A stretch of 63,431 bases of DNA, the filler included, from Actinobacteria bacterium UBA7524 (lineage in GTDB: Bacteria > Actinomycetota > Coriobacteriia > Anaerosomatales > UBA912): the NCBI GenBank assembly GCA_002478275.1. It is 3 parts of 3 records of this genome, joined end to end, with 100 filler letters (N's around TTAATTAATTAA, not from the genome) between each part and the next. Parts side by side here need not be neighbours in the genome. Positions count along the whole stretch, not along the records: positions 26,447 to 56,188 come from DLMY01000035.1; 2 more parts are not named here. The stretch is one strand, 5' to 3'. Shown here one piece after another: positions 30,001 through 36,000 of this stretch (its first letter is position 1; every line of letters starts with the position of its first letter). The position numbers are program-made.

Positions 30001-33000
30001 CTCTGGTGATATCGACGGCAAGATCGCCGCGATCGAGGCGATCGACCTGGAGGTCATCGCCCGATTCATGGATCTTGAGGGTGACGTCAGGATCCTCGCG
30101 ATGCCGGACCACCCGACTCCCATAGAGCTTCGCACCCACGTCGGCGAGCCTGTCCCATTCGTCTTGTGGGGTTCGGGCGTGATCGCGTCAGGGGCGTCGG
30201 CGTACGACGAAGAGTCGGCAGCCTCGACCCGGCTGATGGTCGATCCGGGTCGCGATGTGATGTCGATGTTGCTGGGTGTGGGCGAGATGGCGTCATCCCT
30301 GTAACGACCTGGCGTACCTCAGATCTTACCTGCGAGGATACGTCCCAGGCTGGCGGCTTTGTCACGTTCCCAGTCGTGGACACCGGGCCGGCGCCAGGTG
30401 TCGGTGACAGCAAGGGAGCCGATCGTGCGGATACCACCTTGCCCGAGTGCGCTTCTCAGTTCACGCACGGGGCCGGTGGTGTAGCCGAAGAACGTAGCGA
30501 GTGGCTCAGGGGCTCCGCAGGCGGTGATCACTATGGCTCGTTTGGCTTCCTCCACACACCTGGATCTTGGGACATCACGCATGCCGAGACCTGGCAGGTG
30601 CATCTGTCCGCTTGCGGCGAAGTACCCCGCGAGCCTGTCAAGCAGCGCCCGGGTGACTTCGTCGGCGCGCCTGAAGTAGGAGGGCGTACCGAATATCACG
30701 CCGTCGGCATCCGAGATGCGTGAAGCGAGTTCGGGCAGGTCATCGTCGATCTTGCATGTTCCTGTAGCCATGCACATCCGGCAGCCGGTGCAATAGCGGA
30801 TCTCCATGTCGTAGAGACGAACCCGTTCGACCTCCGCACCCGCAGCTTCGGCGGCCAGGGCGGCCGTTTCGACGGATCGGCTCACGACACCTTGTCGTCT
30901 ACTGGCGTCTATCGCGATGATTCTCAACGGGTGTCTCCCTTCGGCGTGCGGGACTCAAAGAGCGTTCGTTGTGGCGGGGCCTGGGCCATGTGCGCCGAGA
31001 TGGTCTCAGAACAATCATCGAGCCAGTCGATCGTTGCCCGTGTGCGTGCGATCGCCCCGTCAAGGGTCATGCGGTGAACGAGACACGTACGCTCTGTCGC
31101 CTCGCAGCTTCCGGAGCCGAGCGTCGAGACGCGTGCCCGGAGATCATCCAGCCGGTCCTGGTGAGCCGAGCGTTCACGTGCGATCACGTCGAGGACCGTT
31201 TCGTCGTTGAGGTCCCCACTGAATTCCAGACGCAAGAGGAATGGGTCGCGCGCGGGTGGAAGGTGGGGTTTCGACACGATCCAGTCCGCGAGCTCTCTAC
31301 GACCGTTGTCGGTGATGGCGTACACCTTGCGATCTGGTTTTCTCGACTGTCGGACCGTGCGGAGAGTCACGAGGCGCTTGTCGTGTAGCCGCTCCAGAGT
31401 ACGGTAGACCTGGGCCTGGTCGGCGGTCCAGAAGTGACGGGCGCGGTCGTCGAAGCATCGGGTCTTGAGGTCGTACCCCGACAGGTCCTCGACGTTGAGG
31501 AAACCCAAGATCGCATGGTCCAGGGACACACGAACCGCCCTCAGAGAGATATATGACAGAACAAGTATATGTGGAGACATATAACTTCGTCTAGTGTCGA
31601 GTCCAACTCCAGTTCTGCACCTATGTCCCATGCTCAGGATGCATTTTCGAAGTCTCAAGTCGTAGTTGACCCACGCTCAGGACAGGCTTTCACTTCAGGA
31701 CAACTGAAACGGGGCCCTTGCGGGCCCCGTTTCATGGGAGGGAGGTGAAGAAGACGTACGTATGGGTCCAGATCGACAGTATGAGCACTTCTTCGTACAC
31801 GCACAGTATCGGCCTTGGTGACGAAGCCGGCGTGAAGTGCATGTGGAGAATGCGTGTGTTCGAATGTGGCTCCGCGTTGGATCTCGCATTGCCGTTCACG
31901 CTCTCGAACGACCGCTCGGGTGGGACGGTACTGTTCTATTGGCACGTGACATGCTCCACTGTGGTGTAGTGGAATGAACGTGTGACGCTGAACGTGGCCA
32001 GTGTCGGAAGGAATCGCACACGATGCCAGGACGAAGACTCAACTGCTGGGAGTATCAGGACTGCGGGCGCGGTCCTGGTGGAGAACGTGCGGCTGAGTTG
32101 GGTGAGTGTCCGACATCGACGGCCCAGGCGATGCACGGCAGCAACAATGGCGTGAACGCGGGTCGTGCGTGCTGGGTCGTCTCGGGTACGTTGTGCGATG
32201 GGGTCGTCGCGGGTGACTTCGAAGACAAGGTGAATGACTGTCGCAGGTGTGCTTTCTACCACCGCGTCGAGGTCGAGGAGGGGCTTGAGTTCGAGGGGAA
32301 CGACGCTCTCTTGTCCCGCTATCGCGGTTAGCTTCGTCTCGCCCCGTCACTGTTGACTGAAGACAGGTGAGTTCGACACTGAACCACCGGGTAGAATCTG
32401 TTCATGCCTTTCTACGAACATCCTCTTGCCGCAGTCACGGCCGACGTCGCCCTGTTCGCTGGAGCGAGGTCCGAGCGACTCATCCTCCTTGTCCGCCGTG
32501 CGTTCGATCCGTTCGTGGGGTCGTGGGCTCTGCCCGGGGGGTTCGTCGAGGAGGGCGAGCGGATCGAAGACGCCGCTCGAAGAGAGCTGGCCGAGGAGAC
32601 CGGAGTGCTTTGGCGGCGTCATCTCCACATGGTCGGAGGTTACGGTGACCCGGGAAGAGATCCTCGCGGCTGGACGGTGAGTGTCGTCTATGCGGGCTGG
32701 GCCGGGGAGCGGATACTGCCGGTGGATGCCGGCGACGATGCGGCCGAAGTTGCGTGGCACGACGTAGCGGCCCTTCCCGACCTGGCGTTCGATCATGCGC
32801 GGATCATCTCTGATGCGATCGACGTGTTGCGCCTGCACAACGAGTGGTGATGTCGGCGTCTGCGTCGGTCGATCGTCCGGCGGAGCCGCTCGCTCGTATG
32901 CAGGTCGAGTGCGCGTTGACATGCACTTGCGCCCCCGCGTATCCTTGCCGGAACCGAACATGCGTGCCGTCGATGGGGATGAGTACGTGTGCCCAGTAGG

Positions 33001-36000
33001 ACCAGCAGAGAGCCGGGGTAGCTGAGAACCGGTGTCCGAAGAGCCGCGGAACATGGCCCCGGAGGTCTCCGGAGGAAACGCGCAAGCGGAGTAATGCCGG
33101 ACGGTCGCCCCCGTTACCATGGGCTATAGGAGCATAGACGCCGGCGGGTAAACCCCACCACCCCGCGTTCTTTCGATCGGCGTCGAGTGCTTGAGAGGTT
33201 CCGGAGATACATTCCCGGGATGAAGTCGGGTGGTACCGCGGAAGGCGCATGCGCTTCTCGCCCTGACACCGTACGTGTCGGGTGGGGAGCGTTTTTCTAT
33301 TGGAGGTGAGTGTCGTGGCAAAGAGCTGGGAAGAGATCAACGCACGGATCGCGAACGGAGAAGCGGTCGTGATGACCGCCGAGGAGTTCGGGGATATTGC
33401 GGCCGAACAAGGTGTCTCGACCGCTGCGAAGCAAGTCGACGTCGTGACGACAGGGACGTTCGGACCCATGTGCTCCTCCGGCGCCTTCCTCAACTTCGGA
33501 CACTCGGACCCCCCGATCAAGATGGGGGAGATCACTCTCAACGACGTGCCCGCGAGCGGAGGGCTCGCGGCTGTCGATACGTATCTGGGCGCGACCGAGC
33601 CATCGAACGTGAGGGGCATCGAGTATGGCGGTGCGCATGTCATCGAGGATCTTCTGCGTGGCCGTGCCGTCAGGCTTCGTGCGACCGGCCCCGGGACAGA
33701 CTGCTATCCGCGCACCGAGATCGATACATGGGTCACGCTCGAGGACTTGAACCAGGCGTACCTGTTCAACCCTCGCAACGCGTACCAGAACTACGCCGTG
33801 GCCGTGAACAGTGGTGATCGGACGCTCTACACATATCTCGGTACACTCTTGCCGCGCCTGGCGAACGCGACCTACTGCTCTGCCGGCGCCCTGTCGCCCT
33901 TGCTCAACGACCCGACCTATCGGACAATCGGCGTGGGGACGAGATGCTTCGTGGCGGGCGCTCCCGGGTATGTCGCCTGGGAGGGAACCCAGCACAATCC
34001 GCATGGTGACCGGGACGAGCATGGTGTCCCGATCAAGCCCGCAGGCACTCTTGCGGTGATCGCGGACCTCAAGCAGGCGGACCCGGAGTTCTTCTCGGCC
34101 GCGACGTTCACGCGCTACGGGGTCTCGTGCTTTGTGGGGATCGGCGTCCCGATCCCCGTGCTCGACGAGGAGATCGCTGCGACACTGGCGCTGACCGACG
34201 CACAGTTGACGGCAACGGTGTTCGACTATGGTGTCCAGCGCCGTAGCCGCCCGGCTCTCGGCACGGTCACCTACGCGCAACTACGCAGCGGGCAGATCGA
34301 GATAGACGGCGTCAAAGTGCCTACCGGTCCGATCAGCTCGCTGCCTAAGGCCCGCCGTGTAGCCGAGGAACTCAAGTCCTGGATCACCCGGCACCGCTTC
34401 ACGATCGCGCCGCCGCTGCAACAGCTGCCCCAGGTCGGGGCCCAGGCATTCAAACCGCTCGAGGTTCGCACAGAGGAGGCGATCTGACATGGCCAAGAGA
34501 AGACTCGACTTGACGTTCCCTCCTCGGCAGGCCACCAAACCGATCACATATCACCTGGTGAAGGATTTCGATCTGACCCCCAATATCCTCAGGGCCCAGA
34601 TCCAGCCCGGGCAGGAAGGGCGGATGCTTCTGGAGGTGAGTGGTCCTCGAGAGGTGATCGACCAGGCCGTCGAGTTCCTGGAGGGGGAGGGAGTGGCTGT
34701 GCACGCCGCAGCCAGCGATATCTGCCTCGATGAACAACAGTGTGTCGTTTGTGGACTGTGCACCGCGGTCTGTCGCCCGGGCGCGCTCACGCTTGACCAG
34801 GACAGCGCCGAGCTCGTGTTTGACAAGGACAAGTGCGTGTATTGTGAGGCGTGTGTGGTCGCGTGTCCGCGCAGGGCGATCACCCTCACGTTCTAGGGCT
34901 GAAGGAAAGGGAACCGTCGATGCCTGATATCTTGATGCGTCTTGGACGTGATGTCCTGGTCGTCGACGGGGCGTTCGGGACGATGTTGCAGGGCTACGAA
35001 ATGCCGCCCGAGCAGTGTCCCGAACAACTCAACATAACGGCTCCGGAGATAATCAGGGAGATCCATCACAACTACGTCCTGGCGGGCGCCGACTGCATCA
35101 CGTCGAACTCGTTCGGCGGGACCAGGGCCAAGCTGGACGAGTACGGACTCGGGGATCAGGTCGAGGAGCTCAACCGGGCTGCCGTGCGCTTGGCTCGTGA
35201 GTCCGGCGTACAGCACGTCCTGGCCGACGTGGGGCCGACAGGACTGGTACTCGAGCCGCTCGGTGCGGCCTCCTACGACTACGTGTTCGAGTTGTTCGCC
35301 GAGCAGATATCGGCGCTTGCCCAGGAGAACCCCGACGCGATCATCATCGAGACCATGACCGATATCGCCGAGGCCCGCTGTGCGCTGCTTGCGGCACGCA
35401 GCGTGTGTGACCTCCCGGTCTTCGTGACATGCACGTTCGGTCTATCCGGGCGTATGGACCTGTCCGGCACGGATCCGGCGACGGCCGCGATCATTCTCCA
35501 GGCTGTCGGTGCTGACGCGGTAGGACTGAACTGCGGACTGGGACCGGAGCAGATGGAGCCTCTGGTGGCCGAGATGGCTGCTGCGACCTCCCTGCCCCTG
35601 ATCGTACAGCCCAACGCCGGGCTGCCGACTCTCGTCGATGGGCAGACGGTGTTCCCCGGGACCCCGGACGAGATGGGAGAGCACGCGGCTCGCTTCGTCG
35701 ATCTCGGTGCAGCCTTGGTCGGATCGTGTTGCGGCTCCCGCCCGTCGTTCACAGGCGCCATCGTCGACTTCGTTCGTGACAAGCCGCCGGCGCCAAGACG
35801 ACCCTTGCCGCCGGGGACGGTGCTGGCCGGTCCCCGTGGCGCGATACGCATCGGTGGCGGTGCTCCCATAGCAGTGGTTGGTGAGCGGATTAATCCGACC
35901 GGGAAACGTGCGCTTGCCGATTCGCTGAGGGAAGGCTCGATGTCGGTGGTTCGTCAGTATGCCGCCGAGCAGGCCGCCGCAGGTGCGGACCTTCTGGACG

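Follow-up and report, generated by a model that had tools for sequence, protein, structure and literature searches.

A candidate methionine T-box leader with a conserved linker hairpin upstream of a homocysteine/methionine operon in an actinobacterium

The HcyBio operon and its leader

The window (the whole 63,431-nt stretch of DNA that was analyzed) carries five genes on the plus strand, beginning with HcyBio (DUF39; 33315..34487; PF01837, 1e-147), which encodes a sulfur-incorporating homocysteine synthesis protein. It is followed by genes for a protein with a NIL domain and a 4Fe-4S ferredoxin domain (34489..34896; PF09383, 5e-17; PF00037, 3e-11), a short form of the cobalamin-dependent methionine synthase MetH (34851..37433 as listed ORF limits, the true start perhaps lying slightly downstream; S-methyl_trans, Pterin_bind, B12-binding_2, and B12-binding domains), a DUF5981 protein that is an MTHFR C-terminal-like partner (37328..38110, listed ORF limits; PF12225, 2.5e-30), and methylenetetrahydrofolate reductase (MTHFR; 38107..38964; PF02219, 9.8e-34). 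These are the Pfam domains that the first-pass annotation had given for the operon, and every gene downstream of the leader has a role in methionine synthesis. Homocysteine would be made by the DUF39/NIL-ferredoxin route and then methylated by MetH, with methyl-THF coming from MTHFR/DUF5981. Elsewhere in the genome, a SAM-I riboswitch (C3:10767-10897; 51.1 bits, above its cut-off) lies 5' of the S-adenosylmethionine synthetase gene, in agreement with the earlier view that metK is under separate SAM-I control.

Upstream of HcyBio, a T-box leader was matched at 32961..33268 (+) by the full RF00230 model (positions 1-219 of 219), at 76.0 bits and an E value of 2.1e-16 in a cmscan search of a 1.2-kb stretch. 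No other Rfam family matched between 32500 and 33700 at E<=1. The score is below the curated gathering score of 93, which counts against the assignment. The first-pass annotation had proposed a T-box below the Rfam cut-off in this spacer; its match was reproduced exactly, and both covariation and synteny with HcyBio concur with it. Covariation and motifs were counted in the leaders of 61 non-redundant relatives. Of the 53 base pairs tested, 30 had changed on both sides in a compensatory way; shuffles gave 11.8, and none of 500 shuffles reached 30. In the T-box fold, 94.8% of cells were paired in these leaders, compared with 35-43% in slid controls. On this comparative evidence, the match is a real T-box, far beyond chance.

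Of 146 genomes from the order, 77 had a match to the leader DNA at E<=0.001. As noted before, the spacer is conserved in genome G017, with 73% identity over query positions 10-346. The leader stood directly 5' of HcyBio in all 30 fetched loci, in which the HcyBio start position was also aligned, and the same held for 56 of the order's 66 named loci. At nine loci of the order with NUDIX-HcyBio synteny kept, any riboswitch was absent. The same AUG leader was also found 5' of HcyBio in three Actinomycetota loci outside the order, at 101-121 bits and thus above the Rfam cut-off. The earlier statement that T-boxes of Actinomycetota are essentially limited to ileS is therefore overstated, given these three further HcyBio loci and other examples described in PMC9413887.

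Decoding half and methionine specificity

A single promoter-like site was found (TTGACA, an 18-nt spacer, and TATCCT; 32916..32945, +). It is a consensus match only, with 10 of 12 consensus positions against 0.1 such sites expected in shuffles. A transcript starting from it would begin a few bases 5' of the T-box match. Stem I (32966..33066, +), placed by the RF00230 alignment, comprises a GA/K-turn base, a specifier loop (AUGAGUA / GAACAUGG), an AGAGA bulge, and the distal loop GGUAGCUGAGAA. Its helices 1-5 were 91-100% paired in the 61 leaders, with compensatory pairs in each. Stem II (33068..33101, +), placed by the same alignment, carries S-turn elements (GGAGGAAA ... GGAGUAAUG); helices 6-7 were 97-100% paired, and pair 141-183 was CG in 36 leaders and GC in 18. 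Stem IIA (CGG/CCG), the F-box CCGUUA, and the IIB pseudoknot occupy 33102..33124 (+), with covariation in helices 8-9. In the pseudoknot, the loop GCCC at 33107-33110 pairs with GGGC at 33121-33124, where pair 204-219 was CG in 54 leaders and GC in 6, and pair 205-218 was CG in 58 and UA in 2.

The specifier codon is placed by the model alignment at AUG (Met; 33053..33055, +), with GAA-C on its 5' side and the conserved purine G on its 3' side. The octamer GAA-C-AUG-G (33049-33056) forms the 3' side of the specifier loop, and the alignment gives the reading that was proposed earlier. GAACAUGG, with its AUG specifier, was kept in 61/61 non-redundant leaders and in 3/3 outgroup leaders, and GAACATGG was found in 61/61 non-redundant leaders. 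As a register control within the same genome, identical model columns read AUC before ileS and UUC before pheS, both cognate. Moreover, all three CAU tRNAs that were found carry A73, matching the UGGU bulge of the antiterminator.

A specifier in another frame would give a different specificity, namely CAU (His), ACA (Thr), or UGG (Trp). All of these triplets lie within the octamer, and the specifier position rests on alignment only. However, in this genome the register yields the cognate codon for the leaders of both ileS and pheS, the UGGU bulge requires discriminator A73, as present in the three CAU tRNAs, and five of five downstream genes make methionine. Bacterial tRNA-His has C73 and tRNA-Trp has G73, which counts against the His and Trp readings. 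We regard a shifted frame as highly unlikely. For the AUG reading, we infer that the effector is uncharged tRNA-Met (CAU; initiator or elongator), which would bind the leader and respond to methionine supply.

Terminator, antiterminator and mode of control

Alignment and fold place Stem III at 33198..33221 (+), with GAGAG on its 5' flank and GAA on its 3' flank as the purine string of the discriminator domain; these flanks match the RRRxG-Stem III-AA motif of T-boxes described in PMC7583486. It is followed by the T-box sequence AAGUCGGGUGGUACCGCG with the bulge UGGUACC (33223..33240, +, RF00230 alignment). Within it, GGGUGGUACCGCG is located at 33228-33240, as the conserved T-box sequence reported earlier for the 3' part. 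AAGUCGGGUGGUACCGCG was invariant across 61/61 leaders, and GGUGGUACC was retained by 61/61 relatives. UGGU of the bulge would pair with the tRNA 3' end ACCA.

An intrinsic terminator hairpin is predicted at 33251..33292 (+; -29.8 kcal/mol), with covarying pairs, and its 5' arm (GCGCUUCUCGCCC) doubles as the antiterminator 3' strand. A simple terminator scanner missed this hairpin, whose stem has a 1-nt bulge. The U-run UUUUUCU (33292..33298, +) adjoins the stem. The Shine-Dalgarno sequence GGAGGUG (33302-33308) and the GTG start of HcyBio at 33315 (together 33302..33317, +) lie outside the hairpin. All 61 leaders had a terminator of -21 to -35 kcal/mol, and the median energy was -13.7 kcal/mol for the antiterminator region versus -27.8 kcal/mol for the terminator. 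Since a terminator of about -30 kcal/mol and a U-run precede the ribosome-binding site, the five-gene operon is probably controlled by transcription attenuation. In the same genome, the leaders of ileS and pheS likewise end in terminators.

The score under the Rfam cut-off would also suit a degenerate, non-functional T-box relic, and control could be translational rather than transcriptional, as in the best-studied actinobacterial T-boxes (ileS of Mycobacterium). Against both, the functional motifs are invariant in 61 leaders with covariation throughout the structure, the terminator and U-run are conserved, the Shine-Dalgarno sequence is outside any predicted helix, and Stem I is full-length with a distal platform, whereas translational T-boxes have a short Stem I (PMC7583486). 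Either alternative is thus very improbable. Covariation, the register control, and the tRNA discriminator match support the earlier proposal of a Met-specific T-box on the HcyBio/NIL-ferredoxin/MetH/MTHFR operon. We estimate a probability of about 0.88 that the leader is a Met-specific T-box riboswitch acting on this operon by transcription attenuation.

In the proposed mechanism, transcription would start at the sigma-70-like promoter, and the leader would fold into Stem I with the AUG specifier, Stem II, the IIA/B pseudoknot, Stem III, and the T-box discriminator. Uncharged tRNA-Met (anticodon CAU, A73) would pair through its anticodon with AUG and through its 3' ACCA with the UGGU bulge, stabilizing the antiterminator and allowing RNA polymerase to enter the five-gene operon. 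When the tRNA is charged, the far more stable terminator would form and transcription would stop at the U-run.

Similar met-T-boxes are those of the Staphylococcus aureus met leader (metICFE-mdh) and of Lactobacillales, for which an AUG specifier and terminator/antiterminator attenuation of a methionine biosynthesis operon are described (PMC3771891). In contrast to these Firmicute systems, the host here is a Coriobacteriia-type actinobacterium, the pathway is DUF39/NIL-ferredoxin plus MetH/MTHFR instead of the metICFE of S. aureus, and the linker holds a conserved hairpin domain. The S. aureus leader is described as preferring initiator tRNA (PMC3771891). The actinobacterial ileS T-boxes of Mycobacterium and Nocardia share the family, the phylum, Stem II, and the IIA/B pseudoknot (PMC7583486), but they are described with a short Stem I and translational control, whereas the leader here has a full-length Stem I with a distal platform and an intrinsic terminator. 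The his operon T-box of Corynebacterium glutamicum is also actinobacterial and acts on a biosynthesis operon by transcription attenuation (PMC9413887), but for another amino acid and in another lineage; the likeness is drawn from its description.

The hairpin domain in the linker

An insertion of ~100 nt, unaligned to RF00230, separates Stem III from the IIA/B pseudoknot with CCGUUA. Predicted folds and covariation place in it a hairpin domain (33130..33192, +), within the linker that joins the decoding half to the discriminator half. The domain consists of an outer helix (GAGCAU.GACGCC / GGCGUC..GUGCUU) and an inner stem capped by the 13-nt loop UAAACCCCACCAC (33149-33161). The domain was carried by 57 of 61 non-redundant leaders, with compensatory change in 9 of 11 pairs of the outer helix 10 and 6 of 7 pairs of the inner helix 11. 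The first-pass annotation had listed the insertion before the antiterminator as a weakness; its presence was confirmed, but it is a conserved, covarying structured domain rather than a weakness. This conserved hairpin domain is new here, and no other part of the leader is as unusual. Stem Sa of staphylococcal glyS is likewise a conserved lineage-specific T-box insertion (PMC9177973; mentioned in PMC7583486). However, Stem Sa is described as sitting inside the antiterminator/terminator domain, whereas the domain here is found farther upstream, in the linker that leads to Stem III, and is complementary to the terminator 3' arm.

That complementarity lies in the C-rich loop motif CCCCACC (33153..33159, +), which matches GGUGGGG (33281-33287) of the terminator 3' arm. 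After antiterminator formation, the loop might trap this arm and so aid a weak antiterminator against a very stable GC-rich terminator. Such an auxiliary antiterminator is a tentative reading, to which we assign somewhat less than an even chance. About an even chance is given to a Met T-box as proposed whose insertion is a neutral or architectural, lineage-specific linker expansion with no switching role, the complementarity stemming from C-rich/G-rich composition or an old local duplication.

The evidence for co-variation between loop and arm is mixed. In 50 of 57 leaders, nothing outside the insertion paired better with the loop motif, which has a fixed place, than the terminator 3' arm did (9 contiguous pairs at the median), and cognate loop/arm pairs exceeded permuted ones (0/20000 permutations reached the observed value with all 57 leaders). 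This held when each arm type was represented by a single leader (n=26; 34/20000). Where the arm had U instead of C, the loop had A in three leaders, each from a different family, and G in one leader; the 5' arm of the terminator itself kept G at that position. No mismatch occurred in 53 scorable leaders. The cognate-versus-permuted test gave no signal when applied to 24 pheS leaders from the order (16.5 for cognate pairs, 17.2 for permuted ones). These results argue against a neutral insertion. In its favor, column-wise loop/arm covariation was absent in a MAFFT alignment (73.8% paired versus 73.9% in shuffles; 275/500 shuffles reached the observed value). In dinucleotide shuffles of the loop window made sequence by sequence, the observed score was often reached, and the result was only marginal (median 0.047; <=0.05 in 29/57). 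Three leaders (L070, L074, and L091) lack the insertion and yet have equally stable terminators, so the domain is not required. Moreover, the T-box linker is described as variable, with lineage-specific insertions known (PMC7583486; PMC9177973). The composition of the two strands, C-rich in the loop and G-rich in the arm regardless, counts against an accessory role, as do a second conserved motif, ACCACC, which is present in 40/57 leaders but pairs best with the T-box in just 5/57, and the nine loci of the order that lack any riboswitch.

The domain is conserved, structured, and located between the two tRNA-contacting halves, so it could instead be a second sensor, an aptamer for SAM, methionine, or homocysteine whose ligand exposes or hides the loop in a two-input switch. 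However, a search with the domain at E<=10 gave no Rfam family beyond noise of 8-10 bits, complementarity to G-rich strands within the leader accounts for its few conserved unpaired positions, and the domain is dispensable in three leaders. A second sensor is accordingly very unlikely, although SAM control of the HcyBio pathway does exist elsewhere, since SAM-I (S-box) riboswitches precede HcyBio in Bacillota at 7 of 14 outgroup loci. There, the first gene is the same (HcyBio 58-63% identical), as is the logic of leader-RNA feedback on homocysteine and methionine synthesis. The signal differs, being SAM in Bacillota and, as proposed, the charging state of tRNA-Met here, where SAM-I controls metK only.

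The leader and its specificity

A NUDIX gene (32404-32850) and HcyBio (DUF39; GTG start at 33315), which opens the operon, are separated by a spacer of 464 nt, in which the sole Rfam match was the T-box model RF00230 at 32961-33268 on the plus strand (76.0 bits, E 2.1e-16, full length over model positions 1-219). The T-box match reported for this spacer by the first-pass annotation was thus reproduced, and the genes that it had listed downstream were found by Pfam and open reading frame content: HcyBio, NIL+Fer4, a short cobalamin-dependent methionine synthase, DUF5981 and MTHFR, tightly packed at 33315-38964. 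A promoter-like site, TTGACA-18-TATCCT, matches the consensus at 32916-32945. A look-up of sequencing runs covering 32900-33900 listed one DNA run, possibly the source, and no RNA run. The leader scores under the Rfam gathering threshold (76 vs. 93 bits), a shortfall that goes with its 64% G+C content and a 100-nt insertion; homologues of lower GC content that precede HcyBio reach 101-121 bits. The Rfam cut-off can therefore miss GC-rich, insertion-bearing T-boxes. All four T-box matches of this genome lie under it, at 77.6, 76, 40.9, and 24.5 bits.

Alignment to the Rfam model placed the canonical parts. The base of Stem I carries a GA/K-turn, and the specifier loop contains S-turn elements (AGUA opposite GAA), with AUGAGUA on its 5' side and GAA-C-AUG-G on its 3' side. 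The positions of the Stem I base and specifier loop were invariant across 61 distinct leaders, and helices 1 to 3 were paired in 96-100% with compensatory changes present. The AGAGA bulge and the distal loop are visible in the alignment of this leader; the distal AG bulge and loop, CAGAGAGCCGG-GGUAGCUGAGAACCGG, align to the model and are nearly invariant, and a platform for the tRNA elbow is predicted from the sequence. The S-turn of Stem II, the Stem IIA/B pseudoknot, and the F-box CCGUUA follow (helices 6 to 9), and pseudoknot pairs change from CG to GC in six leaders and from CG to UA in two. Approximately 100 nt between the IIA/CCGUUA part and Stem III stayed unaligned. Stem III is enclosed by a purine string (GAGAG-Stem III-GAA, 33193-33224); an RRRxG ... 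AA motif flanking Stem III is defined in PMC7583486. The T-box sequence AAGUCGGGUGGUACCGCG is invariant in the leaders, and its 7-nt bulge carries UGGU, in which UGGN matches the NCCA end of tRNA. Judged by these parts, the element is a bona fide methionine-specific T-box of the transcriptional type. To a riboswitch class already known, it would add a new regulon and a new lineage.

Since alignment was the sole basis for placing the specifier, register controls were sought in the same genome, which holds three other T-box matches. The same model columns read AUC-A before the isoleucyl-tRNA synthetase gene (ileS) and UUC-A before pheS, so that the register yields the cognate codon in both known cases; here it reads AUG-G. 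The specifier arrangement GAA-C-AUG-G, with the codon after GAA-N and followed by a purine, was found in 61/61 leaders. The other triplets of this octamer, CAU, ACA, and UGG, were rejected as specifiers because they do not fit the gene content. The discriminators of bacterial tRNA-His and tRNA-Trp do not fit the bulge UGGU either. In this genome, which is 83% complete, ARAGORN found 27 tRNAs. Anticodon CAU occurs in three of them (one initiator-like), and all three end in A-CCA (A73), which matches the discriminator A that the bulge calls for. The predicted effector is thus tRNA-Met, its initiator and elongator forms being indistinguishable here. For the met leader of Staphylococcus aureus, a preference for the initiator tRNA is described in PMC3771891.

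Two of the other leaders in this genome, ileS (L001:1501-1790, contig C18) and pheS (L003:1501-1830, contig C36), end in a GC-rich hairpin and a U run. Both thus appear to be of the transcriptional type, in contrast to the ileS T-boxes described for Mycobacterium, which are translational. A class I/II aminotransferase gene is preceded by a T-box-like match of low score (24.5 bits, E 0.03; L004:1501-1691; C19:142707-142897); the GGUGGUACCGCG core of this match is good, and its Stem I is much reduced.

Conservation and the predicted transcriptional switch

The leader DNA was matched in 77 of the 146 genomes of the order, Anaerosomatales. At the fetched loci, it lies directly 5' of HcyBio in 30/30, with HcyBio 76-90% identical. 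A protein-based scan of named genomes gave 80 loci, and the titles of the relatives read Coriobacteriia, some of them Anaerosomatales. Among the 66 loci with a close HcyBio (L035-L100), the leader was present in 56, no riboswitch was detected at E<=0.01 in nine, and one had no upstream DNA. After removal of duplicates, 61 distinct leaders made up the alignment used below, in which GAACATGG occurs at the same offset, and GGTGGTACC also occurs, in 61/61.

The nine riboswitch-less loci still show NUDIX-HcyBio synteny, and there the T-box appears either to have been lost from the operon or never to have been present. Short spacers were seen at L049, L073, L083, and L090 (approximately 90-130 nt before HcyBio) as well as at L048, L062, L075, L086, and L087. 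The first four share GTGCGACAAT(A/G)GC(G/A)GG, which looks like an extended -10 promoter. In the family to which this genome belongs, 0/4 of the other genomes (G142-G145, completeness 80-99%) carried HcyBio, by this protein query, or the leader, and the nearest leader, at 80% identity, belongs to another family (G087). This pattern could reflect loss in some genomes, transfer between members of the order, or mis-binning of contig C35 (29.7 kb). Another leader, L078:1250-1500, measures only 251 nt; it retains the T-box, a terminator, and a Stem I that includes GAACATGG, whereas the 3' half of Stem II is absent, as are the pseudoknot, the insertion, and most of Stem III.

Structure was counted on the 61-row alignment with 53 hand-placed pairs, covering Stem I, Stem II, IIA, the IIB pseudoknot, and two helices of the insertion. 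Pairing was retained in 94.8% of cells, and 30 pairs changed on both sides, compared with 11.8 in shuffles; 0/500 shuffles reached any of five measures. When partners were slid along the alignment, pairing fell to 35-43%. RNAalifold independently found Stem I, Stem II, IIA, the outer helix of the insertion, and the terminator, with compensatory changes in 22/56 pairs. Minimum free energies were unremarkable for the whole leader (z -0.58) and for the isolated insertion (z -1.26); such z-scores are uninformative at 64% G+C.

In the folds, the strand GCGCUUCUCGCCC 3' of the T-box sequence has two alternative pairings. It pairs back with GGG...GCG as the antiterminator, or forward with GGGUGGGGAGCG as a terminator, a 42-nt hairpin of -29.8 kcal/mol followed by UUUUUCU. 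A simple terminator scanner returned 0 sites in 32800-33400; the stem has a 1-nt bulge, and folds were used instead. The terminator hairpin was present in 61/61 leaders at -21 to -35 kcal/mol, with a U-rich tract after most, and its pairs covary in RNAalifold. The Shine-Dalgarno sequence GGAGGUG and the GTG start sit 3' of the hairpin and are thus free. Together, the terminator, the U run, the free Shine-Dalgarno sequence, and the conserved, covarying hairpin mark the leader as a predicted transcription attenuator, in which antiterminator and terminator would be mutually exclusive.

One alternative is a translational T-box like those of Mycobacterium ileS, which dominate the actinobacterial literature; according to PMC7583486, they have a short Stem I, no distal platform, and a Shine-Dalgarno sequestrator. 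These features are not found here, and the full-length Stem I, the terminator with its U run, and the free Shine-Dalgarno sequence make this class very unlikely. The transcriptional reading adds full-Stem-I T-boxes to a phylum best studied for translational ones.

An inserted hairpin and its complementarity to the terminator

The linker that joins the pseudoknot to the purine string in front of Stem III measures 94-124 nt in 57/61 leaders. In three others it is 42-43 nt and holds Stem III only, and one more is truncated further. In folds, the additional stretch forms a long hairpin (33130-33192 in the window), with compensatory changes in 9/11 pairs of its outer helix and 6/7 pairs of its inner stem, and with a C-rich loop of 13-15 nt (typically AUCUCCCGCCCG; UAAACCCCACCAC in the window). 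An Rfam search of the insertion at E<=10 returned only noise and no family. By comparative sequence evidence, the insertion that lowers the Rfam score is a conserved structured hairpin, not junk, and makes the leader a structural variant.

The loop (CCCCACC, 33153-33159) is complementary to the 3' arm of the terminator (GGUGGGG, 33281-33287, in the window; typically GGGCGGGAGG), with 6-12 contiguous pairs (median, 9), and this arm was the best partner of the loop outside the insertion in 50/57 leaders. Evidence for selection on this pairing is mixed. Column-wise covariation of loop and arm on the MAFFT alignment gave no excess (73.8% vs. 73.9% in shuffles), and the C run slips register there. 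Anchored, permutation-based tests were run in place of the column-wise count, and both kinds are reported here. When RNAduplex was applied to each loop against each arm, cognate combinations averaged -20.84 vs. -19.81 ± 0.20 kcal/mol for permuted ones, a value reached by 0/20000 permutations. With an ungapped helix score, the observed value was reached by 0/20000 permutations for all 57 leaders, by 3/20000 for the 52 unique loop/arm combinations, and by 34/20000 with one leader per arm type (n = 26). Counting against selection, dinucleotide shuffles of the loop window in each leader reached the observed score at a median frequency of 0.047.

At one position of the arm, some leaders carry C and others U. 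Where the arm has C, the loop base facing it is G (49 leaders); where the arm has U, it is A in 3 leaders, each of a different family, and G in 1, with 0 mismatches and 4 leaders not scorable. The loop follows the 3' arm rather than the look-alike 5' arm, because the terminator's own 5' arm retains G where the loop changes. A general habit of T-boxes in the order to pair linker with terminator arm was considered, and was rejected for pheS. The 24 pheS leaders examined from the order have long linkers too; there, helices were short and scattered, and 18258/20000 permutations reached the cognate score (16.5 vs. 17.2 permuted).

We propose, at a little better than one chance in three, that the linker hairpin may be a built-in trap for the 3' arm of the terminator, its C-rich loop imitating the 5' arm. 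Uncharged tRNA-Met would hold the antiterminator and thereby the 5' arm of the terminator. The emerging 3' arm, left with no local partner, would be captured by the insertion loop, and strand invasion of the antiterminator would be blocked. Without tRNA, the adjacent 5' arm would win and the terminator would form. In fold energies, the antiterminator region has a median of approximately -14 kcal/mol, the terminator approximately -28, and the loop/arm duplex approximately -21 before topological costs. The trap would let a weak antiterminator (~-14 kcal/mol) beat a GC-rich terminator (~-28 kcal/mol) and would turn the three-strand T-box switch into a four-strand one. The insertion is not essential, because three leaders lack the domain. 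As far as our searches reach, the literature holds no earlier description of such an accessory element in T-boxes. If the hairpin does trap the terminator arm, it would represent a new attenuator design principle for high-GC genomes and a simple test system for strand competition in riboswitch expression platforms; as a conserved accessory hairpin, it points to a possible new accessory mechanism that can be put to the test.

Two other complementarities involve the insertion. A second conserved motif, ACCACC (40/57 leaders), is complementary to GGUGGU of the T-box. This pairing is little supported, with the T-box as best partner in 5/57, and the invariance of the T-box allows no covariation test. 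In L007, L021, and L022 of genus g13, the 5' strand of Stem I contains a 12-nt complement of the 3' strand of the outer helix, which was not seen in other leaders and could be either a chance match or an alternative fold particular to this lineage.

Leader RNAs of HcyBio outside the order

Outside the order, 14 loci with HcyBio 58-65% identical were preceded by SAM-I in seven, by a T-box in three, and by no detectable riboswitch in four. The SAM-I-preceded loci are mostly from Bacillota, and one SAM-I match is just under its cut-off; at L103, L104, and L110-L114, HcyBio of Bacillota-type MAGs (58-63% identical) lies behind SAM-I riboswitches of 42-101 bits. The three T-box loci are from Actinomycetota (one titled Candidatus Aquicultor secundus), score 101-121 bits, above the Rfam cut-off, and each contain GAACATGG. 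Because these outside loci carry it, the pairing of Met T-box and HcyBio is older than the order, and standard thresholds suffice in lower-GC relatives. Thus, the Met T-box reading of the first-pass annotation is supported, and its claim that the pairing is unusual in Actinomycetota was too strong. Ahead of HcyBio as first gene, Bacillota have SAM-I, and two or more actinobacterial lineages have the Met T-box, a clear case of leader-RNA replacement.

Staphylococci and Lactobacillales are known to have methionine operons under Met T-boxes (PMC3771891), and genetic evidence from Desulfovibrio and Methanosarcina supports the DUF39/NIL-ferredoxin pathway (PMC5764234). We found no literature on T-box riboswitches in Coriobacteriia, and censuses (Vitreschak 2008; Kreuzer & Henkin 2018) may already list Met T-boxes in Actinobacteria. 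Searches on MA1821/DUF39/COG1900 with T-box or S-box gave, at the level of listings, no paper linking DUF39 to a T-box.

The only SAM-I riboswitch found in this genome (51 bits) precedes the S-adenosylmethionine synthetase gene, metK, as had been annotated. In these uncultured, subsurface-type Coriobacteriia, the recently discovered DUF39 route to homocysteine is therefore predicted to respond to the charging state of tRNA-Met, with SAM acting on metK only. Unrelated to the leader, the region 3' of the operon (39153-42495) encodes a protein with a nitrate-reductase-delta-like chaperone domain, a phosphonate-type periplasmic binding protein, and a HAMP/HisKA sensor kinase.
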